From a virus (lineage: Duplodnaviria > Caudoviricetes), in the IMG/VR virus record IMGVR_UViG_3300025154_000092, positions 1 to 63,401 of that record: a stretch of 63,401 bases of DNA. One strand, 5' to 3'. Below the pieces are notes generated by a model, which was not told where the DNA came from, did not search any database, and saw only the letters and a list, made by a program, of their open reading frames with translations. Shown here piece by piece: positions 2,451 to 52,000 of this stretch. A program made the translations under genes and the position numbers. Positions within the stretch are counted from its first letter, which is position 1, and each line of letters begins with the position of its first letter.

Positions 2451-2462
2451 CAGCGCTTTAAC

Positions 2463-2510
2463 TGGTGGAGCTGGACGGGATCGAACCGACGACCTCTTGA
2501 ATGCCATTCA
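2463..2510 (-). mobile_element. attP core: 3' half of tRNA-Ala(GGC), anticodon arm to CCA
   Basis: Minus strand reads TGAATGGCATTCAAGAGGTCGTCGGTTCGATCCCGTCCAGCTCCACCA: anticodon GGC, T-loop GGTTCGA, CCA end; no 5' half; adjacent to integrase. Confidence 0.9.
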
Positions 2511-2613: not shown

Positions 2614-2632
2614 ATTAGACAATGTTAGACAG
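2614..2632. repeat. Putative integrase arm-type sites, right of att core
   Basis: ATTAGACAA (2614-2622) and GTTAGACAG (2624-2632). Confidence 0.6.
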
Positions 2633-3737
2633 CGGCCGGAGAATTTCTCCGGCGTTTTTGTTTGCGCGGGTGGAGATCGGGCAGTTTGGTAGCCTGGGTT
2701 TTACGGATATCCCGGGCGAGGTGGGTGTAGACCTTGATGATCATGCTGACGTCGACGTGGCCGACTGTTTCGGCGAGCTCCATGATGTCCGTGCCGGCGG
2801 CCAGGGCATAGGTGATGTAGTAGTGGCGGATATCCTGGAGGCGGATCCGGCGGGCGATGCCGGCGGCCGTCTTTGCCTCGGTCCAGGCGCGTTTGACGGA
2901 TTTGACCGGGCGGCCGTTGAAGTGGCAGATGTAGGGGCAATTGGGGAAGTCCTTCGTTTGTGCCTTCTGCCGGGCCCTGAGACGGCGCAGGAAGGCTTTA
3001 TCGATCGGAACGGTACGGAAGCTGCCTGCCGTTTTGGATCCGCGGACCCTGAGCCTGCCTGTTTTAAAATCGAGATCGCTCCAGAGGAGTGCGAAGAGCT
3101 CGCTTTTGCCTGTGCGGACCCCTGTGTAGTAGGCAACCTCCATGATCCAGGCGAGGTGCGCGGGCGCCTGGGCGAGAATGCGGCGGAATTCATCGATGGA
3201 GAAGAGCTCGAGCTTGAATTTCTGGTGCTTGGTGCGCAGGTTCTTGCGTTCGCTCCAGGGGTTTTGGTGGATGGCGATGTCGGGCCGGCTTGCTGCCCAA
3301 TCCCATATTTTGCGGAGATAGTGCATGTAGGTGTTGATGGTGCGGTTTGTGAGGGGCGCCTTGTAGATATGGGTCTGCCGGCCCTTCATGGAGTCTTCGA
3401 CCAGGGCGCAGTCGAGCATGGCGATGGCGCTGATGGGCTTCTTGAACAGGTGAGTGGTGTAGGTGTTGACGGCATAGAGGATGCCGTAGCGGGTGCTTTT
3501 GCTGAGCTCGTTCTTGCGGTCGATGATGTAGAGCTGCACGAGCTCCTGCCAGGTTAAGGAGGAAGACGGCCGCTGGATGGGCCGTGATTTTCGTTTCTGC
3601 AGCTTGATTTCAAGGTCGCGGGTTTCGGCGGCATGCGTCGACTCGGGATCCCTGCCGAACGATTCCCAGACTTGCTTGCCCTTATCGTCGTAGTAGACGC
3701 AGAAGACCCTGCCGTCGGGCTTGGTGTGGACGGACAC
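2625..3737 (-). CDS. int: Tyrosine integrase
   Basis: YYTGVR..ELFALLWSDLD, QDIRH (HxxR box with Q for H), VGH..SMIIKVY; 370 aa; next to tRNA-derived attP. Confidence 0.93.
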   Translation of the reverse strand: MSVHTKPDGRVFCVYYDDKGKQVWESFGRDPESTHAAETRDLEIKLQKRKSRPIQRPSSSLTWQELVQLYIIDRKNELSKSTRYGILYAVNTYTTHLFKKPISAIAMLDCALVEDSMKGRQTHIYKAPLTNRTINTYMHYLRKIWDWAASRPDIAIHQNPWSERKNLRTKHQKFKLELFSIDEFRRILAQAPAHLAWIMEVAYYTGVRTGKSELFALLWSDLDFKTGRLRVRGSKTAGSFRTVPIDKAFLRRLRARQKAQTKDFPNCPYICHFNGRPVKSVKRAWTEAKTAAGIARRIRLQDIRHYYITYALAAGTDIMELAETVGHVDVSMIIKVYTHLARDIRKTQATKLPDLHPRKQKRRRNSPAAV

Positions 3738-7002: not shown

Positions 7003-8463
7003 ATGGGCGAGGTGATCAGGGCGGCGGATTTATTTTGCGGGGCGGGCGGAACGTCGACCGGGTTGGTAGAGGCGTGCAAGGCGATGGGGAGGAAGCTGGA
7101 CCTGGTCGCAATCAATCATTGGGAAATTGCCCTCCTGAGCCATAAGCAGAATCATCCCGATGCGCGGCACATATGGGCGTACCTGGAAAGCCTGAACCCG
7201 CGCGAAGTTGTTCCCGGGCAGGCGCTGGATATCCTCGTGGCGTCGCCGGAGTGCATCTTTCACTCCAATGCCCGGGGTGGAAAACCGATTCAGGAGCAAT
7301 TGAGGGCCTCGGCCTGGTGCGTGCTGCGCTGGGCCGAGGCTTTGCAGCCTAAGAGCGTGCTGATCGAGAACGTGCCGGAGTTCCGGAAATGGGGTCCGCT
7401 TGGGACTGATGGGAAGCCGATCAAGGGCAGGGAGGGTGAAACGTATCAGGCGTACCTGAATGCCCTGCGGTCGCTTGGGTATGCGGTGGATGACAGCATC
7501 CTCAATGCTGCGAACTATGGGGATGCAACCAGCAGGCGCAGGCTCTTCATCATGGCCAGCAAAAGCGCGGAGCGGGTTGAATGGCCGAAGCATACGCACA
7601 GCGAACACGGTGAAAACGGTTTGCCGCGGTGGAAGTCGGCCCGGGAGATCATTGATTGGTGCGTGAAGGGGGAGAGCATATTCCATCGTGCCCGGCCGTT
7701 GGCGCCCAGGACAATCGACCGCATAGCGCATGGGCTGCGTAAGTTCGGCGGCGCCAACGCGGAACCCTTTCTTGTCATGCTTTACGGCAGCAATAACGTC
7801 CGGTCGGTTTATCGGCCCCTGCCCACTGTGACGGCCGGCGGGAATCACATCGGACTCTGCGAACCCTTTCTGTGTTCGGTGAATCATGGCGGAGGCGGGG
7901 ACCGGAGTTATGGCCTGGGGAAACCTCTGCCCACTGTGACCACCAAGAACGGCTATGCCCTTGTTGAGCCGTTCATCCTGCCCCATGCCCACGGCAAAGA
8001 CCTGGATGAGATCCTGCGCAATACGCCTGCCAGGAGCATCGATCGGCCGCTGCAGACAATTACCGCCAACAGCTCGAATCATATCGGCCTGGTGGAGCCC
8101 TTCATTACGATCATGAAGGGAAAAAGCACGGTCCGTGCGATCGATGACCCTTTGCCTACGGTTACGACTCAAGGGCACCTGTATCTGTGTGAGCCGTTTC
8201 TTGTCAAATACAACGGGACAGGGAAGGCGAATTCTGTTCATGAGCCGTTGGATACGATCACTACCAAACATCGCTTCGGCCTCGTGGAGCCTGTGCGGAT
8301 GGATATCCTTTTCCGGATGCTGCAGCCTCACGAGCTCGCGGCCGCGATGTCGCTGAAGGGGTACAAGTTTGCGGGAAGCAAGAGGGACGTAATCAAACAG
8401 ATTGGGAATGCGGTGCCTGCAGAGATGGCGCAGAAGCTGTGTGAAGCGCTGTTGGCGGCGTGA
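7003..8463 (+). CDS. C5 cytosine DNA methyltransferase
   Basis: DLFCGAGG (motif I), SPEC (motif IV variant), IENVPEF (motif VI), RRRLF, QIGNAVP (motif X); about five internal PL.T.T...L.EPF repeats. Confidence 0.92.
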   Translation: MGEVIRAADLFCGAGGTSTGLVEACKAMGRKLDLVAINHWEIALLSHKQNHPDARHIWAYLESLNPREVVPGQALDILVASPECIFHSNARGGKPIQEQLRASAWCVLRWAEALQPKSVLIENVPEFRKWGPLGTDGKPIKGREGETYQAYLNALRSLGYAVDDSILNAANYGDATSRRRLFIMASKSAERVEWPKHTHSEHGENGLPRWKSAREIIDWCVKGESIFHRARPLAPRTIDRIAHGLRKFGGANAEPFLVMLYGSNNVRSVYRPLPTVTAGGNHIGLCEPFLCSVNHGGGGDRSYGLGKPLPTVTTKNGYALVEPFILPHAHGKDLDEILRNTPARSIDRPLQTITANSSNHIGLVEPFITIMKGKSTVRAIDDPLPTVTTQGHLYLCEPFLVKYNGTGKANSVHEPLDTITTKHRFGLVEPVRMDILFRMLQPHELAAAMSLKGYKFAGSKRDVIKQIGNAVPAEMAQKLCEALLAA

Positions 8464-8783
8464 GGAGGGAGAGCATGGGGCTACGAAACTTTGCAAGGAC
8501 CTTTCTTAGTGATGTTCGGTATTTGTTTCGGCAGCCGGATGAGCCCGGGCGGTCGCTGGCCGAGCATGTGCTTGCGCTGGCCGATGACGCCTATCTAGCC
8601 GGGCATCCGGAGTGGCGCGAGATTGTAAGGGAGGCTGTAGGCGTGCTGAACATCGACAGATCCTGGGATGAGTGCCAGATATGCGGTGAGCCGGTAAGAC
8701 ATGCACCCGGCCCGCGCAATCCTCAGCCATATTACTGCCTGAGACATCGGCATCTTATGCCCAGGAAGAGGGAGTTTGCTTAG
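8460..8783 (+). CDS. Hypothetical protein with C-terminal zinc-finger-like motif
   Basis: CQIC...YCLRH; overlap with MTase stop. Confidence 0.55.
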   Translation: MRRESMGLRNFARTFLSDVRYLFRQPDEPGRSLAEHVLALADDAYLAGHPEWREIVREAVGVLNIDRSWDECQICGEPVRHAPGPRNPQPYYCLRHRHLMPRKREFA

Positions 8784-8827
8784 CGAAGCGCCTATGAACC
8801 GTTCCGGTCCGGAGAAAGGAGAGCTAA

Positions 8828-9040
8828 TTGGGAACTCAGATAATCGGTGATCCGAAGTGCGATCATTGCCACAAGAAGAGCCCTGTGTTTACAGAGGTTA
8901 AGCTGTTTGGAAAGAAGTGGCTGCTATGCCCTGAGTGCGGAAGCGCGCTCGGGGTTTTGTTTTCTCGGCGGGTAGCGGAGATCGTTGGCGGGCGGGAATA
9001 TTTGCTTCAGGACCTCAAGGATATGGCGGAAGGCCACTGA
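8828..9040 (+). CDS. Small zinc-finger-like protein
   Basis: CDHC...CPEC; SD AGGAG. Confidence 0.55.
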   Translation: MGTQIIGDPKCDHCHKKSPVFTEVKLFGKKWLLCPECGSALGVLFSRRVAEIVGGREYLLQDLKDMAEGH

Positions 9041-9068
9041 CTGAGGCTTTTGAAGCTACGGGGGGAAC

Positions 9069-9902
9069 ATGGAAAATACAAATGCGTATTGGGACAAAGA
9101 AGATTTCGAGGATTCGATTGTGAAGGCTTTCATTGGCCTTTACGAAGATCGCAATATTATCAAGGGCAGGTTTCCGGAAATGATGCCGACGCGTCGAGAT
9201 ATAGATGAAGTGCGGCGGTTTGGTTGCTATTTCCCTCCATCGGACCGCTTGGTTACTACCGGTGGTCTTGATCCTGAGAATGACGGATTTCCGGCATTTG
9301 CGGCATTCGCATATATAAATAATCGAACAAAGCCGGTAGAGGAAGACATTAGAGACTATATCGACCTCATGTGGGTGAAGCGGTTAAAACGCTTACCGGG
9401 TGGGTTCAAGACCGTTGGACATAAAGCCTATTATCAGTTGCTGATTTGGTGCCCGCAAATAGAAGGCGGTTCGTTTATTTCAAAGGAGTTCCTTGGTTTC
9501 GACAACAAAGGAAACCCTCATCTTGCAACCCATGGAAATGTGCTTGCCTACGAAAGAGCAGCGATTGAATGCTTTCAATTGAGGGCGTCTACCACGATAC
9601 AGTTCTACCAGGATCGCCGGTATCTTTGGAACGTGGCCGCGCAAGAGGGAGCTGCCAAGGCGCAGTTTGGGGTGTACGAGGAGCAGGTGAAAAGCCTCTT
9701 TTATGCTCGACAACTCCCGATGACCGACACTGGAAGAAAGAGACCAATTCTTCATTGGGTTCGGGCACATCGTCGGCGGTTGAAGGCGGGAACCGATATA
9801 TCTATCGAGAAGTTCCTGCGCGGAGTGACAAAGTTCGAGATGAATGGCACGGTCTTCGAGATCACCAGACCAACGAAGCAGCTACCTGGAGAGAGCGCGT
9901 AA
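9069..9902 (+). CDS. Hypothetical protein (277 aa)
   Basis: Long ORF with G-rich SD; HWVRAHRR motif near C-terminus. Confidence 0.7.
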   Translation: MENTNAYWDKEDFEDSIVKAFIGLYEDRNIIKGRFPEMMPTRRDIDEVRRFGCYFPPSDRLVTTGGLDPENDGFPAFAAFAYINNRTKPVEEDIRDYIDLMWVKRLKRLPGGFKTVGHKAYYQLLIWCPQIEGGSFISKEFLGFDNKGNPHLATHGNVLAYERAAIECFQLRASTTIQFYQDRRYLWNVAAQEGAAKAQFGVYEEQVKSLFYARQLPMTDTGRKRPILHWVRAHRRRLKAGTDISIEKFLRGVTKFEMNGTVFEITRPTKQLPGESA

Positions 9903-9926
9903 GTTATCAGACTTACGAGATGGGGA

Positions 9927-10142
9927 GTGATGGAAGAGAACCGCATAGTGAAACTGATCCTGGACCTGCGGATTGATTTCGAGCTGACACAGGAGGGCCT
10001 GGCCGCACGGTTGGGAGTGAGCGGTTCGATGGTGTCGCGGTGGGAGTCGGGCGAGTGTGTGCCAAGCCGTGTGCATTGGCGGGCGCTGCAGAAGTGTTTC
10101 GAGGGGATTGTGTCGTTGCCGGATCTGGAGAGTCTGAGATGA
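9927..10142 (+). CDS. XRE-family HTH protein
   Basis: LTQEGLAARLGVSGSMVSRWESGECVP. Confidence 0.85.
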   Translation: MMEENRIVKLILDLRIDFELTQEGLAARLGVSGSMVSRWESGECVPSRVHWRALQKCFEGIVSLPDLESLR

Positions 10143-10462
10143 AAGAACTTATCCTGGATAAAAACCGCAAGATCATTACGCCATGGCTGACGAGCGACGA
10201 GGCGGCGCTCTACTGCGGGATCCACCGCAACACATTCGACCTGCATTCGGTTGGAGTGCCCTTCGGCGGCAGCAGGAGCCACAGGCGATGGCATGCCCGA
10301 ACGCTCGACAAGTGGGTGAACAACGAACTCGACACCCCCTTCTCCCCGCATCCCCGGGAAGGCCGTTCACGAATTAGTGAAAGCCGGAGGAAAAAAGCGA
10401 TCGGGAAACGGAGTGAGGAAGTCGGGTTGGTGGATCCCGGGACAGGAAAGGTGTTCGCATGA
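10139..10462 (+). CDS. Excisionase-like/AlpA-like HTH protein
   Basis: WLTSDEAALYCGIHRNTF...WHARTLDKWV; ATGA overlaps on both sides. Confidence 0.65.
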   Translation: MKELILDKNRKIITPWLTSDEAALYCGIHRNTFDLHSVGVPFGGSRSHRRWHARTLDKWVNNELDTPFSPHPREGRSRISESRRKKAIGKRSEEVGLVDPGTGKVFA

Positions 10463-11333
10463 ATGTTCAATCGTATATGTGCCCGTACAAAGGGAAACCG
10501 CGGCCGGTGCATCCGGCAGTGTGCGAGTGGCACATCCGGGAGCGGGATCCGGAGTGTTTGAAACAAGACTGCGCAGTCTACAAGGAGGGAGTGGCCAAGG
10601 ATGGAGGAAACAAAACAACCGGTTCTGACGCCGGTAATCGATAAGAAGATGCAAGCGCCGGAAGTGCCCCTGGATCCAAATGGCTTTGAGAGCACTCTCG
10701 CGTTTCTGGACAAGGTGATGGAGCGAAACGAGCGGATCAAGATCTGGGGGGCTGTTTTCAAGGTAATGAAGGTGCGGGCCGGCAAGGTCGTGCTGAAGTG
10801 CGTGAGGGACAAGAGCCCGTGAGTCGGGTGAGAGCGGCCCGCTGAAACCTCAATGGGGAGGTTGAGCGATGGGAAACAGGATCCTGGACATTGATTTTTA
10901 TGAAAACCCCAGAGGCAAAGTGTATCCGGTGACCCTGAAGGATGGCCAGAGAGTTTTTGTGCCGGTGCGCGGGGTGGTCGACGCGGTGCCCGGCGGCCTG
11001 GTTTTGCAGGAATGGTGTTACCGGTTCGTCATGAAGCAGAAACAGAAACAAAAGCAGGAGGCGACGGCGTGAAGAAAGAAAAACCTCCGTTGGGCATTAT
11101 GCCGGCACGGCTTTGGAGAGAGACAAGGATGCAGGGGTTGGCCGCGGCCATAGAACGGCGGACACGTGCGGGGTTGTTTGATGAAACGGTTGTGAGATGG
11201 TGTGATGAATTGACGGGGATGATCAGGGAACGGAATGGAATAGTGGAACTCGATCTGGGCACGGGATTTGTTCGTTAAGTCCCATGCAGAAGCGGTGATG
11301 ACGAATTCGACCGAATGAGGAGGAAAAAAACAG

Positions 11334-12254
11334 ATGAGAAGACTGATTTTGCACCACAACGACGCGGACGGAAAATGCGCGGCAGCGATCGCGGCCAGGT
11401 GGATGAACGAGCTAAAGGAGATTGATGTGCACTGCGAACGGGTGAACTACGGTGAGGAACCGCCGTGGGGCCTGCTCGAAAAGCTTGGGCCTGACGATCC
11501 GGTGTGGATTGTGGATTTTTCGTATGAGCCGGAGCAAATGCTTGAGATAGCCAGGAAGTATGGGCACAGGCTGTATTGGTTCGACCACCATGGGACATCG
11601 ATCGACAAGCTGCAGGCGATCATGGACCCATTTGGCATTGAGGGCCGGCGGCAAGTGGGCATTGCCGGGTGCATGCTTGTTTGGCAATTCTGCCACAGGA
11701 GCAGGCGCCCGCCGCTGGCCGTGGAGTACATTGCGGACCGGGATTTGTGGAAGTTCGCGCATGGGGACAGGACCCGGTGGTTCTATGAAAAGTATCTCCT
11801 GGAGCAGGCGACTCATCCGCTTGCAAAAGTATGGGACACCTGGTTCGAGATGACGGAGTGGCAGTACGAGAACTACCTGCGAAGCGGCGAAGAGCTCCAC
11901 CGGGCCCGAAGAGGCATGCTGCAGGGGATTGCCCGGCGGATAGGGTATGAGTGCAACCTTCTTTATCTTCCGGGTGATTTTTCGCCGCTTCAGCCACCCG
12001 GCAAGCCGGATGAAAAAGTACCGGCAAAACAACTGAAGGTGCTGAAAGTCAATTTCCCGGGATCCGGCGACATGGGCGAGGTGATTCGGGAGATGGGCTA
12101 TGACCTTGCCTGGGTGTACTGCGAGGAGTACCGCAACGGCAAGATGGGAAGGGTGAACAGCCTCTACAGTGAGAAGGTGGACGTGGGCGAGATCGCCAAG
12201 GGGCATGGCGGCGGCGGGCACAAGGGCGCGGCCGGGTTTGTGGAGGTGATATGA
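11334..12254 (+). CDS. DHH/DHHA1 family phosphoesterase
   Basis: HHNDADG, IVDFS, WFDHH, IADRDLW, GGGHKGAAGF. Confidence 0.9.
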   Translation: MRRLILHHNDADGKCAAAIAARWMNELKEIDVHCERVNYGEEPPWGLLEKLGPDDPVWIVDFSYEPEQMLEIARKYGHRLYWFDHHGTSIDKLQAIMDPFGIEGRRQVGIAGCMLVWQFCHRSRRPPLAVEYIADRDLWKFAHGDRTRWFYEKYLLEQATHPLAKVWDTWFEMTEWQYENYLRSGEELHRARRGMLQGIARRIGYECNLLYLPGDFSPLQPPGKPDEKVPAKQLKVLKVNFPGSGDMGEVIREMGYDLAWVYCEEYRNGKMGRVNSLYSEKVDVGEIAKGHGGGGHKGAAGFVEVI

Positions 12255-12625
12255 AAGCGATGATCATCATGGGACCTGCCGGATCGGGCAAAACCAAGAG
12301 AGCCGAGGAAGAGGCGCGGAAGAGAGGCGGCAAGTTCGTGGTTGTCTTCTGGGAAGACCTGAGACGTAATCGTTTCACCCTTGGCGCAGCTATGGCTTCG
12401 GAACCGGAGACCATAATAGTTGAAGGGCTCTCAGTCACGAAGGCAGCCGAGAGAGCGTACCTGAAACAGCTCGTGGCAGAAGATGAGCTCCTGGTCGAAG
12501 AGAGCTATACCCCGCGGCGCGCTGTTCGGGCACCATGGTTTATTTTCACTATGCAAAGCCCGCTGAAAATGGATTTAACGACATTGTTTGACGAACGGCG
12601 GTTTGAAGTCGTGGAGGTGCTGTGA
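12251..12625 (+). CDS. Small P-loop NTPase (SF3/AAA-like fragment)
   Basis: GPAGSGKT Walker A; ERRFEVV. Confidence 0.65.
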   Translation: MKAMIIMGPAGSGKTKRAEEEARKRGGKFVVVFWEDLRRNRFTLGAAMASEPETIIVEGLSVTKAAERAYLKQLVAEDELLVEESYTPRRAVRAPWFIFTMQSPLKMDLTTLFDERRFEVVEVL

Positions 12626-12951
12626 TGGGAAAGGCGGTGTTCAGCGGGTTGGGGAATACGGATCTGGTGGTGGCTAAGCTCGTGAGCGTGACAGCTATAG
12701 CCACTGGAGACCTGCTAAAAATCATGAGCTTGGGGCTCGACTCGAACGAAGTAGATCATGTTTATGGCCTGAGGCTGGTCATTGAAGGTAGCGATAAGCC
12801 GATGGAGTTCTACGACAAGGATAGATCGGTGATCGAGGCGAAGCGACTGGATCTGCTGGCTGCGATCGAGGCGTACTATGCGGGATATGAGGAACAAGTC
12901 GAAATCAAGATCCCGGTCGCGGATCTGGGGCAGGCAATAGGAGGTGAGTAA
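12622..12951 (+). CDS. Hypothetical protein
   Basis: SD GGAGG; overlap packing. Confidence 0.6.
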   Translation: MMGKAVFSGLGNTDLVVAKLVSVTAIATGDLLKIMSLGLDSNEVDHVYGLRLVIEGSDKPMEFYDKDRSVIEAKRLDLLAAIEAYYAGYEEQVEIKIPVADLGQAIGGE

Positions 12952-13526
12952 TGGCTGAATTCTGGATGATGTCGAACCGGCAACCGTGGGTGGAGGCGTT
13001 GCTGCGCGGGCTGATCACGACGAAGACAAGGGATCACGGTGTGGCGCTGCCACCTGTGGGCGCCACGGTGTTCCTGCATGCGGGAAAGAAGCTGTGGGAC
13101 GGCTGGCAGTTTTTGAAATGGATCCGGGGCGAGGTCTTGGAAATGAGCAGCCTGCCTGTGGGCGGAGTATGCGGAGTGGCCAGGGTCCGGGCTCGTGGCC
13201 CCACAAACGCATGTATGCCGGCAGAGGACAGGCCGTTCTTCGAATACACGATCGGTGGTGGAAGCTGCGCAGGGGTGATGTGTGTGGTGTTCGAGGACGT
13301 GAGGAGGATGCAGTTTATCCCATGCAGAGGCACGCAGCAGGCCACCAGGCGAGTCCCCGAGGCGGTGATGAAGGCCTACGAGGAGGGGCGCGTTAGCTCT
13401 CTCGCGGCCGATCAGGAGATTGTCTCCGGGAGCATCAAGCTGCCAATGACGCGGGATCATGAAAGGGAGATGCGGGCGTACTATGATTTTTCGAAGGGCG
13501 TAAGGGGGAAGCATCATCGTGGTTAG
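12951..13526 (+). CDS. ASCH/PUA-like domain protein
   Basis: SNRQPWVEALLRG..TKTR...VFLHAGK...PVGGVCGVA; SD AGGAGG. Confidence 0.65.
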   Translation: MAEFWMMSNRQPWVEALLRGLITTKTRDHGVALPPVGATVFLHAGKKLWDGWQFLKWIRGEVLEMSSLPVGGVCGVARVRARGPTNACMPAEDRPFFEYTIGGGSCAGVMCVVFEDVRRMQFIPCRGTQQATRRVPEAVMKAYEEGRVSSLAADQEIVSGSIKLPMTRDHEREMRAYYDFSKGVRGKHHRG

Positions 13527-15450: not shown

Positions 15451-16173
15451 ATGCCGAAACGAGTATACGAACTGATGTTCAATCCGGGCGAGGTTGTGGA
15501 GATCCGGGCGATCGGTGGGCTGAAGGGCCGGAATAAGGCCTGGGAAGGGGCGTGTTTCGGGGCGAAGGGCACAGTGTCGGGCTATTTCGATAATGCCGAG
15601 GCGTTCGGCGCCTCGGCGAAGGCCCTGGACGATGCCGGCGCCCACGGGGTCTATTACACCCTGAACCCCTGCCGGCCGGCGCTGATTGCCAGGGCATATA
15701 ACCGGCTGAAGGCCAACATCCATACGACAACCGATGGCGAGATTGAGCTGATACGCTGGCTGCCGATCGATCTGGATCCGCGGCGCCCTACCGGCATTTC
15801 CTCTTCGCAGGCGGAATTGGATGCGGCCGTCTCAACGGCCAAGCTTGTTGCCGAGCACCTGGAGGGTGATCTGAAATGGGCCAGAGGACTGCGAGCCTTC
15901 AGCGGGAACGGCTACCATCTGATGTATCGGCTGCCAGACTACCGGAACAGCGAGGAGTATATCCAGAAAATCAGGGATATCCTCGCCTATCTGTCTGGGA
16001 AGTTCACCAGCGATCGTGTGATCATTGATGAGGTGGTGCATAATCCCGCACGAATTTGGAAGTGCTATGGGACGCACGCACGGAAGGGAGACAGCATACC
16101 GGAGCGACCACATCGCGTGAGTAGGATTCTGTCAAAGGAGCAGAAACTGGCGGATGTGGAAGTGACGGAATGA
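15451..16173 (+). CDS. Primase catalytic subunit (AEP/PrimPol-like)
   Basis: IDLDP acidic motif, SGNGYH motif, NPARIWKCYG; translationally coupled (ATGA) to next gene. Confidence 0.8.
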   Translation: MPKRVYELMFNPGEVVEIRAIGGLKGRNKAWEGACFGAKGTVSGYFDNAEAFGASAKALDDAGAHGVYYTLNPCRPALIARAYNRLKANIHTTTDGEIELIRWLPIDLDPRRPTGISSSQAELDAAVSTAKLVAEHLEGDLKWARGLRAFSGNGYHLMYRLPDYRNSEEYIQKIRDILAYLSGKFTSDRVIIDEVVHNPARIWKCYGTHARKGDSIPERPHRVSRILSKEQKLADVEVTE

Positions 16174-18050
16174 GCAAAATCGACGAGACCGCAAAGCGTG
16201 CTCCTAAGAAGGAGACGTCACAGGCGCCTGCAGGAAAAGCCCGAGGTGTAGGCAAGGGCAACCTCGGGATGATGGACCTGGGCGCGTACCTGCGGGACCA
16301 CGGGCAGCCATTCCACGAAAAAAAGCTGCGAGACAAAGAGAAAGCCCACCTCACATACTTCGTACTCGAGAACGGGTGACTCTTCGACGAGAATCACCGG
16401 GGCGGTGAAGCGGCAATAGTGCAGTCACCTGAAAAGCCGTTCCTCTTCTACTTCTGCTATCACACCAGTTGCAAGAAGCACACATTCAAGGAAGCGCGGG
16501 CGAAGATCTCCGGCCAGGAGTCGCTGGCCAAGTATTACCCGGGGTATGACCCCAGCAAGCGGAGCAAGAAGCCAGGCACGGAGCTCGGCGCCGTGCTGGC
16601 AAAGTCAAGCATACCTTACCAGATTGAGTTTGAGTGCCTTTCACCCCGCATCCCCCCTCCCCACGAAGTAGACCCGTACACCTTCTTCGAAGAAGGTGCC
16701 AGGGGTACGCTGTCGTTTGTGCCGAAGCGGCTGGCGGATTACATGGCCGTGCTCCTGGGCCCCTTGTACGAGACCCTGGGGACCTGGTGGAGGTATGAAA
16801 ACGGGGTTTACCGGCGGATGGACGTTGGGGAGCTGCAGCACGTGGCGACAGTGGCATTGAGGGACCATGCTCGGCCGAACCAGGTGAACGCGGCCGTGGA
16901 GATTCTGGGGAACCTGGTTCGGCGCAGGCCCTCGGATTGGCCCAAGGAGAAACTCATAAACTGCCTGACGGGTATGTTGAACCCGGAGACGGGAAAGCTT
17001 GAGCCACACAGTCCTGCGTACCTGAGCCGGGTGCAGATAAAGTGCAAATATGACTGGAAGTATTTAGACGCGGCACAGCCGTTTATGGAGTTCCTGGAGG
17101 GGGCCCAGCCTGGAAAGGATAATGAGGCGTGCCGGACCATCCTGCACCGGTTTGGCGGGTATGTGCTGCTGCCTGACAACCGGTATGAGAAGGTGCTGCT
17201 CCTGAAGGGTGAGGGCGGGAATGGCAAAGGGACCTTTATCAACATCCTCAGCATGGTGATTGGAGAGGAGCACGTAAGCGCGTTGTCGCTGCATGACCTG
17301 GGAGAGCGGTTTAACACATACCGGCTGGAAACCTCGATCTTGAATGTTTCGACAGAGGTGAACCCTAAGAAGAGCGTTGAGACCGAGACGCTGAAGCAAG
17401 TGGTTTCCGGTGATCTGATCAAGGGCGAAGAGAAGTTCGGCAAGCAGTTCGAATTCAGGCCTAGGACGAAATGTATCTTCTCTCTGAACAAGAAGCCGAT
17501 CCTTCAGGACGTGGGGTATGCCCTGGAGCGCCGGCTGATTGTTGTGCCGTTTGACACGACATTCGAGGGCAAAACGAAGGTGGAAAGCATCTGGGACAGG
17601 TGCGTGGAAGGTGATGGGCGCCATGGCGTGTTTATGTGGATGGTGCTGGGCCTGGAGGAGCTGCTCAAGAACGGATTTGAGCTGACAGGCAGGGTGAAGA
17701 GCACAACGACGGCATTCCTGCGATCGCTAAACCCGGTGATGATTTTTGTCCAGGACGTATGTCGCCTACGACCTGGGGACAATAAGGTGTTTGTGGGCAC
17801 GGTAGAACTCTACAAGAGGTACGTGCAATGGTGCGGCCACACAAAGCACAAAGAGATGGCCAGGACGAACTTCTGGGACATCATTGAGAGCATTCCGGGA
17901 GTACGGCGGGGGTTGCACCATAAGACAAGGCAGGCGAATTTCTTTGGAATCGAAATTAAGCCTGAAGACCTGGGTGAAGAGGCAGAAGGTTATGATGATC
18001 TTGAGGAGGTCGACCCCTCGACCCCTCAACCCCGTACCCCCTCTTCTTAG
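16170..18050 (+). CDS. Zn-finger + D5/P4-type SF3 helicase, 626 aa if UGA at codon 70 is decoded (candidate selenoprotein)
   Basis: ORFs 16170..16379 and 16419..18050 are in one frame separated only by TGA 16377-16379; reads LENG-U-LFDENH...FCYHTSC; Walker A GEGGNGKGT; INCLTGML D5_N-like motif; C-terminal winged helix. Confidence 0.8.
16377..16408 (+). promoter_or_regulatory. UGA plus candidate bacterial SECIS hairpin
   Basis: TCACCG(16394-16399)-GGG-CGGTGA(16403-16408); loop starts after 20 nt from UGA and begins with G. Confidence 0.65.
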
Positions 18051-18065
18051 TTCGCCTTACTGTTA

Positions 18066-18358
18066 CCTTCACGAAGGTTTGGGCGAAGGGTAAACGAAGG
18101 TTTTGCGAAGGTTTTGCGAGTTGGCAAGTGTCTGAAAACATTAATGAACGAAGGTTGCGAAGGTTTTCAGTGAGGTTAGTCCTTACTATTATGCACATAC
18201 TATCTCCTATTTATTCTCTTTTTGTCACTCCGTGCGAAAGGAGTAGCTCAGAAACCTTCGCAACCTTCGTAGTGGAGGAAGATCAAACACTTAGAAGACA
18301 AAAAACCTTCGTAAAAACCTTCGGGAAACCTTCGGAATGGGGGGTAAAAACCTTCGTA
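18066..18358. other. Replication origin with oppositely oriented iterons
   Basis: Six CGAAGG(TT) copies (18072-18165) and six AACCTTCG copies (18253-18356) flanking an AT-rich core (~18175-18225), right after the helicase gene. Confidence 0.8.
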
Positions 18359-18644
18359 ACCGGTCCTGAAGTGACGTTAAGTAGGTGCATGAAATGATGG
18401 CTGGCGAGTGCATTATTCGGCCAGCGACGGGATCGGCCGCGGTATAAGGCGAAGGATAGTGAATGGAAGCGAAGGTAGCCAGGTGGGCTACCTTCAGAAA
18501 GGGGGGTGGGGGGCACGGGTGAACGCTTGAATCATGGTGCCGAAAACCCACGAAGAATGGGAAATGAATGGAAAGGTGGTGGTGGAAGTGAACCTGGATG
18601 GATTCGAGGTGTGAACCGGTGGATGTTTGTCAATTTTTAACGAA

Positions 18645-18684
18645 CACGACTTGCTAACTTTAGTGGATAAGTTAGCAAGTCGTG
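18645..18684. other. lox/dif-like recombination site
   Basis: Perfect 16-bp inverted arms CACGACTTGCTAACTT / AAGTTAGCAAGTCGTG with 8-bp asymmetric spacer TAGTGGAT, upstream of a tyrosine recombinase. Confidence 0.65.
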
Positions 18685-18820
18685 AAAACGCGGAGAAGCA
18701 GGAACAACAAGGCTCTTGGGTGTTTTGGGGGATTCGGTTAAAAAATAGGCCTTGACAGATTGCCAACTAATAATGATGATACGGCAGAAAGTTGGCAAAT
18801 CTCGAAAGGGGGAAAACGGG

Positions 18821-19417
18821 ATGAAAAAGAGCAGAAATCCGAATCACCCGAGGGCCGGATCCAGGATCAAGGTGGAACCGATCAAAACGCTGAAGGACAT
18901 CAAGTCGATCAAGAAGCTGCTGGCAGATAACCCGCGGGACCTGGCGCTGTTCGTGGTCGGGATCAATACGAACCTGAGGGCCGGCGATCTGCTCGGGATC
19001 CGTGCCGGCATGGTCCGGGGCCTGCGGCCGATGGATGAGATCGAGCTCAGGGAGGGGAAAACCGGGAAGCTGCGCCGGATCAGCCTGAACGGAAGCGCTA
19101 TAGAGGCCGTCCAGGGGCTTTTGGCTTCTCAGGCATACCAGGACAAGGACTTCCTTTTCAGGAGCCAGCGGGGCGAGGTCCTGACAGTGCCGTCGCTCCA
19201 CCGACTGGTAAAGGGCTGGTGTTCGACGATCAACCTGCGGGGCAACTTCGGCAGCCACACGCTTCGGAAGACATGGGGATATCACCAGCGGGTGACCTTC
19301 GGCATGGGATTGCCTGAGCTGATGGTCTGTTTCAACCATTCGAGTCAGAGGCAAACCCTGGATTACCTCTGCATCCAACCCGAAGAGGTGAGGTCGGTCT
19401 ATGCGAACGAGCTGTGA
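18821..19417 (+). CDS. Small tyrosine recombinase/resolvase (catalytic domain only)
   Basis: RDLALFVVGINTNLRAGDL, EGKTGK, SHTLRKTWGY, FNHSSQRQTLDY. Confidence 0.9.
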   Translation: MKKSRNPNHPRAGSRIKVEPIKTLKDIKSIKKLLADNPRDLALFVVGINTNLRAGDLLGIRAGMVRGLRPMDEIELREGKTGKLRRISLNGSAIEAVQGLLASQAYQDKDFLFRSQRGEVLTVPSLHRLVKGWCSTINLRGNFGSHTLRKTWGYHQRVTFGMGLPELMVCFNHSSQRQTLDYLCIQPEEVRSVYANEL

Positions 19418-46001: not shown

Positions 46002-46081
46002 AGGGTTTCCGCCGCGGAGTGAGCAGGCGCATATATTCCTGAGCGGAGTGTGCGCCTATTTTGTTACACGGGGATCTACAC

Positions 46082-49000
46082 ATGTTCAAAAGCCTAGAAG
46101 AATTCGACCGCTGGGTAGAGGAAGGCAGGCAGGAGGAAATCAGTAAGCGGGCGGCTATGTCGAAACCGCGCGGGGTGCTCAAAGAGGCTGCATCGGCCCT
46201 GGGGGCCGGTGTGGTGAGCACGGGGGAATCGATTGCCGGCGCCGGTGAGATGATCGGGATCCCCGGGGCGAGAGGCGCCAGGGAATACCTCCAGGAGGTG
46301 GGCGAGGCGGAATCTCTGGCCAGGCCTGAGGATCTACAGGAGGGCACCATTGTCGAGCATCCGGAACGGTTGGCGGATTGGCGATGGTGGGTGAGGTCCC
46401 TGGGGGAGAACATCCCGAACATGGCGGCCATGATGTTGCCGGGCGGGCTCGCGTGGAAAGGGGCCAAGGCGGCCGGCTGGGGGTACAAAGCGATCAAGAC
46501 CGCGGCGCTGAGCGGGGCGTTCTCAGGGGCTGCAACGGTGGAGGCGGGCGCCGCTTACACCCAGGCCAAGAAAGAGATGGATGAGTTCGGGTATGCCGAT
46601 GACGTGATAGAGCGCGTGGCCACTGCCGAAGGGCTGATTGTGGGGACTGCAAACGGCATTCTGGAGATGCTGCCGTTCGACAACCTCTTTCTGCGGTCTA
46701 CCGGCGCTTCCGGCATTATTCGCAGGATTGTGCGGCAGGCGGTTTTCGAGGGGTCGACCGAGATGGCCCAAGAGACGGTGAGCCTGGCTGTGGAGCAGTG
46801 GGGGCACCAGCCGGATGTGGAGCTGAAGACCGCGATAGGCCGGGTGCTGGAATCCGGGATTATAGGCGGGGTGCTCGGCGGCGGGGCAGGTGCGGTATTT
46901 CAGAGGACAGAGGACAGAGGACAGAGGACAGAAAAAGAAAAAGATCAACCCATATCCACGACGGGGCAGGAGACGACCCGGGTTGGTTTGGCGGAGATCG
47001 CCGCGGCCGAAGAGGAGCGCAAGGAGAAGGCTCGCCGGGTGGAGAAGGCCAAGGCCGATGCGCCGGCGGCGCTGGCGGAGATCCTGAAGGAAGAAGAGGA
47101 GAGTAGAGCGGAAGTGGTGGCTGCGAAGGCCATTGCGGAGATCGAAGGGACCAAAGGGACGGCAGGGACCGAAGAAGCGGAGGGTGTGGATGAAGGTGCA
47201 CAAGAAGGACGGGTGGCACGTGTACTCGGAGAAGAAGAACCCGTTGACGGGGAAGCGGCGGCATCTGGGGGGCCCGTACCCGGCGGAGAGCCAGGCGAAC
47301 GAGAGGTTGCGGCAGGTGGAGGCGGCGAAGGGGAAAAAGTAGAAACGGAGAAACGGGGAAGCGGAGAAACGGAGATCAAGGAGAAGATCGATGCGGCGGC
47401 CAATGAAGCGGCCACATCCCCGAAGAACGATTTGCCTGAACCCACCGAAGAGCAGAAGGAGAAAGAAAACTACAAGATGGGGCATCCTGACCCTAAGCTG
47501 CTGCATGGGTTGGATATCTCCATAGAGAACCCCAAAGGCTCCATTCGCAAAGGCAAGAGCAAGGCCGGCGTGGAATGGCAAACGAAGATGCAGGCGCACT
47601 ATGGTCACATAAACGGGACCGAAGGCGCGGACAGCAGCAAAAAGCTGCGGCAAGGAGTTGACGTCTTCATAGGAGAAACCCCTGAAAGTGAAATGGTGTT
47701 CATTGTCAACCAGGTGAGCCCTGATACCGGCAAGTTCGACGAACACAAGGCCATGCTCAATTACCCCAGCGAAGAAGACGCCCGTAAGGGCTACCTGGGC
47801 AACTATGAAAAGGGATGGAAGGGACTCGGATCCATTGTGCCCATGAAAATGGATGAGTTCAAGACCTGGCTCAAGGAAGGGGACACGACAAAGGAGGCAA
47901 AAGGGACACGAGGGACCAAAGGGACGGAAGGGGAGAAAGGACGGGCGGCGGAAGCGAAGACAGAGCCCACAGCGAAAGAAAAGGCTGTGTCGCAGGGGGT
48001 AGCAAGCATCACGGGGGGAAAGCCCACGGCCGCGGCGCCTGCAGAGGCAAAGGGCAAGAAGGAAGAGCCAACCCCGGCAGAGACGAAGAAAGCAGGAGAG
48101 TACGGGGTTCCTATTCCGCAGGCTTGGAGTAGGCCTACGACCGGAGCAGAAAAGAAATTTGCCAACTACAAGGGTTTTGCATCGTCTGATGAAGGCGGAT
48201 ACCTGTCCGTCGAGGCTTGGGGGGAGACGCAATCCGACGCGGAAAATAATGCACGTAAAGAATTTGAACGCCAATGGTTCAACCGGGATCAATGGAGAAA
48301 AAAGGAGAGCCCGGAGCTCAAAGCCTCAGAAGCAAGCGCAGATGATCTCCTCGCCGAGTGGGATAAGCAGGCGGCGGAGATGGAGGAACCGAAAGAACTA
48401 CGCATAAGTCAGAAGGAACTCGCTGTGCTGCGATCACGGCTGAAGATAGCACAAGAACGCGGCGCGATGGTCGCAGGCATTGAAGTGGATATCCGGCGAT
48501 ATGAGGAGAGCCCAAAGACTTCCGATCTTGATTACAGGGCAACCCTCAATGAACTGAATCAGCGGATCGCTGAGCAAGAGAAGCACGAAAAGGAAGTCAA
48601 GGCGAAGGAACAACTACCCTCCTGGGCGGCGAAGAAGGTTGGAGAGAACCGGGCCGACATTGCCCTTTATGAGGACAAGGACGGCAACCGGGTATTTCTG
48701 GACAAAGGCTTTGTGACGAGCGCTCCTCGCCCTTTAGTCTCCGGCGGCCAGGTCCTGAAGCCTTATAATCCGGAGCAGCTTTACAAGGCTGGGCGGAAAG
48801 AGTTTCTCACCAAGGAAGAGCTGGAGAAGTTCAAGGCCGAGGGAAAACCTGTTTCTGCAGGAGTGGCCAGCATAACGGGGAAGAAGCAGGAAGCGGAAGC
48901 TAAAGCGGCGGAAAAGAAGGAGTTCAAGGAAGGTGATTTTGTCGTACCGAACTCTGAAAGCGGGCTTGGGATCACTTATCGCGGCAGGATCACAAAGACT

Positions 49001-52000
49001 GAGCAAAGGTCAGATGGCCAGTATGTGAAGATTTTTGGAGCCCTCCAGTTTCAGAGATCGGAAAACTTTAAGCTCCAATCCGAGGTGGAAGAGGAAGAGA
49101 AAAAAGGGGCAAAATTCAAGAAGGGCGATCGGGTGGTGATCACCGGTTATGGAGAAGCGGAGCCGCGGCATGGGGAGATAAGCGATGTGCGCGGGTGGGC
49201 GTTTCGTCCGCTCTTCGGGGCTGGTGGGCAGTCTGCGACGGAATACGACTATGACGTGAAGACCGACCAGGGCGCTACGTGGCATGGGAATGATCAGAGG
49301 ATCGTGAAAGAGACCGAGCGGCCGGAGAAGGTTGTCCCAGACATCCTTCGGGGTAATACCTATATGGAGCCTGACTATGTTCTCCGTTCGATTGCGAGTA
49401 ATAGAAGAACGGCAAAGGAGAACAGAGCATCGGCGGGCAGGGCAAAGAAGGCCAGCAGGATCAGTGGGTACAGGAGACAGGCGGCAGAAGCGGACCAAGC
49501 TGCCGATGATCTGCAGGCGGCCTTCGATGAATGGGCGAAGAAATACCCGGAGGAGGCGGCGAAGTACCGGAAGACAGAAGGCGGAGGACAGAGGACGGCA
49601 ACCGAAAAGACAGTTGCGGGGGCAACGGAGACCCTCCGGGATTACGGCATCGATGCAACGAAGACCACGACCAAGAACGGGAAGCCGGTTTGGGAAGTCT
49701 CCGGGAATACGAAGCCCTATGCCGAAGAGATGAAGAAGGCGGGCGGGCGATGGTATGGGCCGAAGAAGGTGTGGTCTTTTTATGGGGAGGAGGATCCTAC
49801 TGCCCGGATCCTGGAGGCGCTGCCGAAGAAGGAAGGGACCCAAGGGACGGCAGAGACGAAAGGAATACCTAACCGCGGAGTGGCCAGCATCACGGGGAAG
49901 AAGCCGGAAGTGCCGGCCGAGACAGAGAAGCCTCAAACCCAAGAGGAAATGCTGGCCGCGGTGAGCGACTTCTTCAAGGGGGACAGGCCTGTTGTCTCCT
50001 GGACATTTAAGCAGTCCCTCGAGGAGTTTAACCGCAAGACGGTTGAAAGCCTTTCCTATGTGGGGAAACTCGTTTCAAGGGAAGAGCTGGCCAATGGCTG
50101 GGTGAAGGTGACCTATGAAAAGGTCGGTGAAAAACCTGTAACTCCCCAGGTGCCCACGGCCGGCGAGAAGGCACGCGAGACGGTTGACCATGTTAAGAAC
50201 GCTGTTGACAAGTTTAAAGCAATAAATAAGATATTGGGTGAGAAGGGTTCTCTCGGCGGACCGGTGGAGCAGGGGAAATACGACCTGATCCGGCCGCTCC
50301 TCAAGGAAGCATGGGATGAAATTGTTGCAGCCGGGAAATCGGCCAAGGAGTTTGTCCAGCTCGCTCTTCAAAACCTCTCACCCAAAGGCAGACCCTATTT
50401 CGAAAAGTTTGTCAGAGAGGAGATAAGCCATGCAAAGCCTGAGCCTGCAGGAACTGAAGAAGCAGAAGCCGAGCGACATCCAGATCGAGAGGCCGTGGGA
50501 AGAGCCGGAGTGGGAGGCGCACCTGCAGTACCTCCTGAACTACCACCCGGCAGCGACCTGGGAACTGTTTCAGAACGACCGGCCGGAGCTGGAGAAGAGG
50601 CTGAAACAGGCGGTGCAGAAGGGGGTGTATTACCGGGTGCTGTACCGGCTGGAGGGGAAACTGGAGCCGGACCAGATCGAGGAGAAGGTGCTCAACCTGG
50701 TGGCCCCAAGCGAGGAGCAACCAAAAGAGCCCCTTCCGGAAGAGCAGGAAAACCTCGTGCTCGCCTGGAGCCGCAATCTGCAGAGTTAGCCGAAGCCAAC
50801 CAGAACCACCGGATTGAGCCGGACGACGAGCTCGTGCCCCGCGGGGACGAGAAACGGATACAGGCGAACATCCGGGCCATAAAGCTTGTCAAGCAGCTCA
50901 TATCCGAAGAGCGAAACCCCACCAAAGCGGAAAAGAAGATCCTCGCCCAATACGTGGGCTGGGGAAAGTTTTCCGAGCGCATATTCAACAAGGAATTCGA
51001 CCGCTATGTGAGGGAGTACCGAGGGAAGACCCATACGGTGTGGGCGCCCTATGGCCAATCCGCAGAGAAGGAATATACCCCTGAGGATTTCTTCGGCAGA
51101 TACGGGGAAGAGAACGAGCGTAAGATAGAGGCTTACAAGAAGTGGGAGACAAAGTACGGCAAGGAGCTCCATCCTTTGCTCGGCGGCATGTTGACCGAAG
51201 AGGAGTGGAAGGCGGCCGAGGCCTCCACCCTGAATGCCCACTATACCAGCCGGCAGATCATCTCCTCGATGTGGGACCTGGCAGAACGGCTTGGATTCAA
51301 GAAGGGAACGGTACTCGAGCCGGCTGCCGGCGTGGGGCATTTCTTCGGGCTCATGCCGGAGAGTGTTGCCGCGGGATCGAAACTCATCGGCGTGGAGCTC
51401 GATACCATTTCGGGCGCCATTCTCTCCAAACTCTACCCTCAGGCGGATATCCGTGTAAAAGGCTTTGAGGAAAGCAACATCCCTGACAATTCCGTGGATC
51501 TCGTGATCACCAATGTCCCGTTCGGTCGCTGGGGCATATTCGATGCCAGGCATCCCGATTACTCCAACTGGTCCATTCACGACTACTTTCTTGCCCGATC
51601 GATCGATACGGCGCGGCCCGGCGGCCTGGTGATAGCGATCACCTCGCACTGGACCATGGACAAGGTTACGGGCGGAGAGAAGCGGGAATACTTTGCCAGG
51701 AAGGCCGATCTTGTCGGCGCAATCCGGCTGCCGAATACCGCTTTCCAGGAGAACGCCGGCACGGAGGTTGTGACCGACATCCTGGTGTTCCGGAAGAAGG
51801 ACAACTCATTCCGGCCGGAGATCCTGCCTTTTCGAAGCATCAAGAGCGTGCCCGTACCTGAAGGAAAGGATAAAAGCGCGGATGTAAACGAATACTTCGC
51901 CGATCATCCCGAGATGGTTCTCGGCAGACACTCCCTTTCGGGCACCATGCGGAGAGGCGGGGACGATGAATACACCCTGCTTCCGGACCCTGCAAAGCCC

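Follow-up and report, generated by a model that had tools for sequence, protein, structure and literature searches.

Selenocysteine (Sec) decoding is regarded as a cellular trait. In bacterial selenoprotein genes, the prototype of which is Escherichia coli fdhF, an in-frame UGA stands where homologues carry Cys, a stem-loop (the selenocysteine insertion sequence, SECIS) lies within the open reading frame (ORF) just 3' of that UGA, and Sec insertion relies on SelA, SelB, SelC, and SelD of the cell. As viral selenoproteins, the text of PMC8310308 available to us names only the glutathione peroxidases (GPx) of molluscum contagiosum virus and fowlpox virus, and it places the fowlpox SECIS within the coding region. 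A full-text literature search for a phage-encoded selenoprotein found no published case. The available portions of three works on prokaryotic selenoproteomes (PMC13188914; BSepDB, PMC13326102; and deep-Sep, PMC12013277) contain no mention of phages or viruses, and those of BSepDB and deep-Sep contain none of primase, helicase, or zinc. Here, we describe a primase-helicase gene of the IMG/VR virus record IMGVR_UViG_3300025154_000092 (Caudoviricetes), the whole 63,401 nt of which are referred to as the window. It is likely that positions 16170..18050 form one gene and that the UGA at its codon 70 is read as Sec by means of the host system.

Two ORFs, 16170..16379 (69 aa) and 16419..18050 (543 aa), use a common frame, the sole interruption of which is the TGA at 16377-16379. 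Reading through this TGA gives a protein of 626 aa in which the UGA corresponds to residue 70, and the 556 codons 3' of the TGA are still open. The ATG at 16170 overlaps the TGA stop of an upstream 240-aa ORF as ATGA. An initial annotation, made from the letters of the DNA alone, had proposed a phage selenoprotein at this place; the ORF coordinates, the shared frame, the lone TGA, the length of 626 aa, the ATGA coupling, and the hairpin position that it gave are all correct in the sequence. The features of the locus are as follows, where L021 and L049 denote two relatives that keep the TGA.

15451..16173, plus strand: ORF of 240 aa with an AEP-type (archaeo-eukaryotic primase) domain; 62% identity over 234 aa to the N-terminus of a fused 842-aa homologue (P0003)
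16170..16376, plus strand: first 69 codons of the zinc-domain/helicase gene, 5' of the UGA; in-frame alignment with homologues across the TGA
16377..16379, plus strand: in-frame UGA, candidate Sec codon (residue 70); Cys column in homologues, TGA kept in L021 and L049
16394..16408, plus strand: SECIS-like hairpin UCACCG-GGG-CGGUGA; folding prediction, same in 3 of 3 TGA loci
16313..16429, plus strand: substitution-free block of 117 nt with the UGA and hairpin at its centre; DNA comparison with the 83%-identical L021
16380..18050, plus strand: rest of the gene, with H76, C96, H98, C101, D5_N, the superfamily 3 (SF3)/DUF5906 helicase, and a TAG stop; Pfam, PHROGs, AlphaFold (AF2) model, and Foldseek

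The TGA is aligned with Cys in homologues, as is found in bacterial selenoprotein genes. Two full-length homologues aligned straight through the TGA with Cys opposite to it. An unbiased HMMER search covered 1.84 billion representatives; of its 150 best matches, 60 extended over the site, and Cys stood there in 59 of these 60. The lone exception, P0019 (834 aa), has Gly or a gap at the site (…YCLKEG-LFHPEH…) and another Cys five residues upstream. Cys was also found at the TGA position in 19 of 19 related loci on viral and metagenome contigs, a set that is partly biased because the search patterns included that Cys; the loci found via a second motif are free of this bias. In an alignment of 47 sequences, C70, H76, C96, and C101 do not vary, and the conservation of H98 is at least 90%. 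The presence of Cys at residue 70 in homologues had been expected in the initial annotation, and these counts bear it out. The motif given there, C-P-F-x3-H...C-x-H-x2-C, placed the first Cys rightly and was slightly off at the second residue; the motif is C-[LV]-F-x3-H ... C-x-H-x2-C.

The C-terminal two thirds of the read-through protein matched D5_N, DUF5906, and VapE of Pfam and the "DNA primase" families of PHROGs. The AF2 model, built from the 47 aligned sequences, had a mean predicted local distance difference test (pLDDT) score of 88. Its best Foldseek matches were the primase-helicase of Staphylococcus aureus pathogenicity island 5 (SaPI5; 7OLA, E = 3e-22), the PrimPol of African swine fever virus (ASFV; 8IQI), and E5 of monkeypox virus (MPXV; 8WGY), with E-values between 1e-22 and 1e-17. 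In the alignment of 47 sequences, Walker A shows no variation at its residues G347, G349, G352, and K353. These results identify a D5/P4-type primase-helicase, with D5_N, an SF3 helicase containing Walker A, and an associated AEP primase; the primase ORF 15451..16173 had no match of its own in the Pfam and PHROG searches. Primase and helicase are fused in some members of the family and stand alone in others. The nearest relatives are of the stand-alone type, with lengths near 620 aa; the closest Cys homologue, P0012, has 620 aa and 50% identity, and its architecture is that of the 626-aa read-through product. The Cys/His domain of approximately 100 residues was modelled with a pLDDT of 87 as four strands and a helix. 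This domain alone gave no match in Pfam, one chance match in a phmmer search against the PDB, and no Foldseek match at E ≤ 0.001, and a collection of phage genomes gave distant helicase-domain matches only, none of which reached the N-terminal domain. The Cys/His cluster probably binds a metal, perhaps zinc, with residue 70 as a putative ligand; this assignment of a zinc ligand is drawn only from the invariance of the Cys and His residues in a domain that has no Pfam, PDB, or Foldseek match.

The TGA is followed by 14 nt and then by TCACCG (16394-16399), GGG (16400-16402), and CGGTGA (16403-16408), for which a folding program predicted a hairpin with a loop starting 20 nt after the UGA. The consensus for bacterial SECIS (bSECIS), as given in the available text of PMC13188914, comprises a loop of 3-9 nt, a stem of 4-16 bp, G in the first two loop positions, a UGA-to-loop distance of 16-37 nt, and a minimum free energy (MFE) of ≤ -7.5 kcal/mol. 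The phage hairpin, with a GGG loop of 3 nt, a stem of 6 bp, and a distance of 20 nt, lies inside this geometry. On its own, resemblance to a SECIS is weak evidence; what carries the case is that the hairpin accompanies the TGA and that synonymous change is suppressed there.

The hairpin nucleotides were the same in three of three TGA loci and were lacking in 15 of 15 distinct Cys-bearing loci. One of the Cys loci, L006, encodes the same peptide (LFDENHRGGEA) using the codons AAC CAT CGA GGT GGA GAG, and does not form the hairpin. The window and L049 share the identical 20 nt GAGAATCACCGGGGCGGTGA, and the codons that flank these 20 nt differ synonymously (CTC/CTT, TTC/TTT, GAC/GAT, GAA/GAG, and GCG/GCT). 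The same codon is used at 85 of the 211 identical degenerate residues (40%), and the longest run of identical codons between the two is ENHRGG, the hairpin (6 codons, 20 nt). Among the 1536 synonymous encodings of ENHRGGE, 64 (4.2%) form a 6-bp stem and 16 do so by Watson-Crick pairs only; both independent TGA lineages use one of these 16.

L021 was found on a 198-kb contig of the metagenome-assembled genome (MAG) Deltaproteobacteria bacterium HGW-Deltaproteobacteria-15. It has TGA at the same codon and 83% DNA identity to the window over 2.5 kb. Third codon positions take most of the substitutions (27/22/112 in one block, for example), and the divergence therefore accumulated under purifying selection. 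The longest identical run is the block of 117 nt at 16313-16429, and the next-longest is 39 nt. The counterpart in L021 is limited to 16030-19417 of the window, with nothing corresponding upstream of 16030; the element lies at 8200-13200 of the MAG contig, with lon on one side and a PP2C/kinase pair on the other, and beside the host clpX and lon. The identical block also includes an A_AAA_AAG heptamer (16319-16325) in the phase required for -1 frameshifting, which is probably there by chance and is not kept in L049. L049 lies in a complete phage genome of 60,110 bp with direct terminal repeats and encodes an 856-aa fusion of primase, zinc domain, and helicase with a lone in-frame TGA exactly at the Cys position; its protein is 37% identical to that of the window (221 of 594 aligned residues). 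The UGA and the SECIS-like hairpin are jointly kept, at the same spacing, in the window, L021, and L049, and the TGA with its hairpin was therefore recovered in related contigs, as the initial annotation had suggested looking for. In the fold of the 117 nt, GGUGA, which includes the UGA, pairs instead with UCACC; this alternative was rejected since L049 does not keep it. A scan of viral contigs with the protein alone found nothing.

SelB was detected in the MAG of L021 at 391 bits (cut-off 242), together with SelA (619 bits), SelD (378 bits, from a gene that contains one in-frame TGA), and a tRNA-Sec (73.6 bits with Rfam; called tRNA-SeC with anticodon tca by ARAGORN). Four selenoprotein genes of this MAG, namely SelD and three formate dehydrogenase alpha subunits (Fdh-alpha), have SECIS elements with a geometry like that of the phage element.

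Host SelD: UGA-to-loop distance 20 nt; CCAGG-GGA-CCUGG
Host Fdh-alpha L060: UGA-to-loop distance 23 nt; GCGGCUCU-GGC-AGAGUCGU
Host Fdh-alpha L061: UGA-to-loop distance 18 nt; GUCGCC-GGUCU-GGCGAC
Host Fdh-alpha L062: UGA-to-loop distance 18 nt; GUGGCC-GGUCU-GGCCGC
Phage element at 16377: UGA-to-loop distance 20 nt; UCACCG-GGG-CGGUGA

The loops of the host set start 18-23 nt after the UGA and begin with GG, the stems have 5-8 bp, and the phage element falls within this range. The hairpin of the host SelD has -6.7 kcal/mol by the same measure and is no stronger than the phage hairpin. Two observations link the phage to a host of this kind: L021 is a relative of its gene, and an attP-like core (phage attachment site) matches a tRNA-Ala gene of the MAG, which is located in L050.

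2462..2510, strand not assigned: attP-like core of 49 nt; 49 of 49 nt match the 3' part of tRNA-Ala(GGC) of the host MAG (G001 C67)
2625..3737, minus strand: tyrosine integrase gene adjoining the attP-like core; Phage_integrase, E = 1.2e-19

The 49-nt stretch beside the integrase is likely the attP core, identity with the 3' end region of a tRNA gene being the customary mark of such a core, and we infer from these two links that the phage host is a groundwater deltaproteobacterium like the L021 MAG. The presumed translating organism would thus possess SelA, SelB, SelD, and tRNA-Sec. Neither tRNA genes nor a SelB match were found in the 63,401-nt window; the view that the phage has no sel gene or tRNA-Sec and needs the system of its host agrees with this result, the linked host having the whole system. 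A stretch of approximately 33 nt at about 46900-46933 matches dozens of sites in the host MAG with 91-100% identity and resembles a short repeat common to phage and host. It lies in a plus-strand ORF of 14,010 nt (46061-60070; 4669 aa).

A second UGA of similar surroundings occurs near the end of the window.

63265..63298, plus strand: second UGA and hairpin at the end of a fibre-like gene; from the sequence, loop equal to those of the host Fdh SECIS elements

The TGA at 63265-63267 is followed by 14 nt and by CGGUGG-GGUCU-CCACCG (63282-63298), which is the same spacing as at 16377, and the GGUCU loop matches those of the host Fdh elements exactly. The window record is CheckV-complete (63,401 bp) and is labelled linear, yet it closes on itself through an exact terminal overlap of 126 nt (5-130 = 63276-63401). 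The frame past 63265 crosses this circular junction, encodes a complete GDSL/SGNH esterase domain, and ends at TAA 582-584; read-through would join the 373-aa fibre-like protein to the complete 195-aa esterase. Without exception, the 32 homologues of the C-terminal domain of the fibre end exactly at the position of 63265. The UGA at 63265 is accordingly not a Cys/Sec pair by comparison, and Sec insertion, if it is decoded, would be a programmed extension. We take this site as supporting context for the use of SelB by the phage, not as proof. When the window was screened for in-frame TGAs lying between two open frames, 30 places came up, most of them shadow frames, and a comparable hairpin was present at none of these besides 16377; the 63265 site was missed by the screen because its downstream frame crosses the window end. 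It is possible, if rather doubtful, that the phage, as a temperate virus of a selenoprotein-rich groundwater deltaproteobacterium, uses host SelB/SECIS decoding at both UGAs, placing Sec at a metal ligand of its only primase-helicase and appending an SGNH esterase to its fibre. If both UGAs are decoded, genome replication and the equipment of the virion would depend on the selenium status and Sec machinery of the host, which would constitute a host-range and life-cycle switch of a type undescribed for any bacterial virus.

Several observations weigh against Sec decoding at 16377. The energy of the hairpin is -6.5 kcal/mol in isolation and -7.3 kcal/mol in context against the cut-off of -7.5 kcal/mol, and the MFE of 43 nt (-8.9 kcal/mol) alone passes. 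The fold energy of the region is ordinary (z = 0.34 against shuffles), and an Rfam scan of 16250-16550 at E ≤ 10 returned no SECIS family and one chance snoRNA match. A loose bSECIS-type filter also passed 3 of 15 Cys homologues, with other hairpins. Hairpin-like geometry followed 7 of the 1857 TGA triplets of the window, compared with 5.8 ± 1.9 in shuffles (approximately 0.3-0.4% per TGA), by a definition that was fixed after the hairpin had been seen. The peptide sequence itself predisposes to the hairpin. Because the hairpin is identical in all three TGA loci, there are no compensatory changes; the initial annotation had looked to a covarying hairpin in relatives, of which the conservation was found and the covariation was not.

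The distribution of the TGA adds to these points. Its carriers are two independent lineages and one remnant only, the remnant being L021, in which the helicase is frameshifted by 1 nt, the primase tail is interrupted by a TAG, and the integrase is reduced to a 221-aa fragment. Further pattern scans for TGA forms found none beyond L049, giving 6 and 9 chance matches, and no further copy with TGA at the site was found among the genomes searched, 401 from the phylum of the host. In a quick maximum-likelihood tree of 52 sequences with support from the Shimodaira-Hasegawa-like approximate likelihood ratio test (SH-aLRT), the window was sister to the Cys protein P0012 (SH-aLRT 100), and L049 stood elsewhere. 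Because the two TGA forms are not sisters on this tree, at least two changes between Cys and UGA, or a local transfer, appear to be required. Convergence on the same 20 nt is plausible, since the peptide nearly dictates the hairpin, and either history would imply that any gene with this UGA is under selection to have the hairpin. The support for Sec is wholly comparative, coming from three loci of which two are independent, and we know of no natural precedent for Sec as a zinc ligand that could be cited.

If the UGA at 16377 were a true stop, the gene would be split: a 69-aa peptide would end there, the helicase would be made separately from GTG 16419 by reinitiation, and the metal site would be lost or formed from two chains. 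Gene callers gave exactly these two products (69 aa, 10 contigs; 543 aa, 6 contigs), and the family is plastic in architecture, with fused and stand-alone primases and helicases; the window and L021 alike have a GTG 14 codons past the TGA. However, GTG 16419 has no strong ribosome-binding site upstream, and the split would fall exactly on the invariant Cys codon. A restart at the first in-frame start of the window, 14 codons after the TGA, would leave the invariant H76 untranslated, and in L049, where the first start comes 53 codons after the TGA, H76, C96, H98, and C101 would all be left out; the motif codons skipped by the restart are nonetheless conserved at the protein level. A split gene would also leave unexplained why the hairpin is kept only in TGA forms. 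We therefore regard the split gene as improbable.

UGA followed by C is a leaky terminator in E. coli, and C directly follows the stop in each of the three TGA loci. Read-through independent of SelB, in which a near-cognate tRNA (Trp, Cys, or Arg) misreads UGA-C at a low level, would yield little full-length helicase and abundant short peptide, like known phage read-through extensions. The second UGA, at which 32 of 32 homologues end naturally, resembles such an extension and not a Cys/Sec pair. At 16377, however, leaky read-through would mostly place Trp at the invariant Cys of the metal site, which should be non-functional, and it gives no role to a conserved hairpin with the spacing of the host SECIS elements and a loop starting with GG. 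The linked host, moreover, carries the full Sec system. Misreading is thus also an unlikely account of the locus.

The TGA is not an assembly error, since contigs of separate runs reproduce it, as the initial annotation had asked to be confirmed. Logan contigs of the runs X1, X2, X5, and X6, which belong to three studies and are all groundwater metagenomes, showed no differences at the TGA codon. The window may itself derive from X1 and X2, and X5 and X6, which match in size, may represent a single data set deposited under two entries, so that the independent support amounts to at least one further sample and not four. The TGA is present in two CheckV-complete phage genomes (the window and that of L049), within the sole primase-helicase match found in each. 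A nonsense mutation, making the gene a pseudogene, or an artefactual TGA is largely refuted already and very improbable, for although a single base change converts TGT or TGC to TGA, the L021 copy is plainly decaying, and some of the runs may not be independent, the TGA recurs in contigs from three studies, in both complete phages, and in a relative diverged by 17% under purifying selection, and in the window 556 open codons follow it. Genome-wide reassignment of TGA was ruled out: TGA is an ordinary stop elsewhere in the window, ending 30 of 59 crude ORFs, several of them in ATGA overlaps, and neither Trp nor Gly fits the invariant Cys.

For the Sec reading of codon 70, we propose the following mechanism. 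A single gene would encode the 626-residue protein, consisting of a zinc-type domain, D5_N, and an SF3 helicase, which would be partnered with the AEP primase encoded upstream. Lying within the ORF, 14 nt 3' of the UGA, the hairpin UCACCG-GGG-CGGUGA would recruit SelB as a bacterial SECIS, and the UGA would be decoded as Sec by the SelB-GTP-Sec-tRNA(Sec) complex of the host. Sec would stand for the first Cys of the invariant C-H-C-(H)-C cluster, which is probably metal-binding. As the phage itself encodes neither sel genes nor a tRNA-Sec, the full-length helicase would be made only in a Sec-competent host supplied with selenium, here a groundwater deltaproteobacterium. SelB binding, Sec insertion, the role of residue 70 as a metal ligand, and the regulatory consequence are what we infer from the comparison of sequences. 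If this mechanism is true, the replication and host range of the phage would be tied to the selenium supply and to SelA, SelB, SelC, and SelD of the host, and a non-redox use of Sec in a metal site and a new selenoprotein family would be added. Gene callers systematically split such phage genes, as they did here on 6 to 10 contigs.

Like the bacterial SelB/SECIS genes typified by fdhF, the phage gene has an in-frame UGA where homologues have Cys and an in-ORF stem-loop just 3' of it, with a loop starting with GG at 20 nt, and it would rely in the same way on the host SelA, SelB, SelC, and SelD. Unlike those genes, it is carried by a phage without any sel gene, its product is a replication primase-helicase and not an oxidoreductase, the Sec would lie in a presumed structural metal site and not in a redox active site, and the hairpin is short (6 bp, triloop) and of marginal energy. 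In comparison with SaPI5 7OLA, ASFV PrimPol, and MPXV E5, the phage protein is alike in D5_N and in the DUF5906/VapE SF3 helicase, with the AEP primase adjacent or, in relatives, fused; it differs from D5/P4-type primase-helicases in that its C-H-C-(H)-C domain of approximately 100 residues has no match in Pfam, the PDB sequences, or Foldseek and has UGA for the first Cys. In [NiFeSe] hydrogenases and Mo/W formate dehydrogenases, Sec replaces a metal-ligating Cys, and the metals are catalytic and redox-active. The phage candidate would resemble these enzymes in having Sec for a probable metal-ligating Cys, whereas its site looks structural and of zinc type and belongs to a DNA-binding or replication protein. 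The poxvirus selenoproteins, as far as the available text of PMC8310308 describes them, are likewise encoded by viruses and dependent on the Sec machinery of the host; they belong to eukaryotic viruses, derive from captured host GPx genes, and use eukaryotic SECIS elements, whereas the phage candidate would be a core replication protein of a bacterial virus, with a SECIS of bacterial type and without a cellular selenoprotein counterpart.

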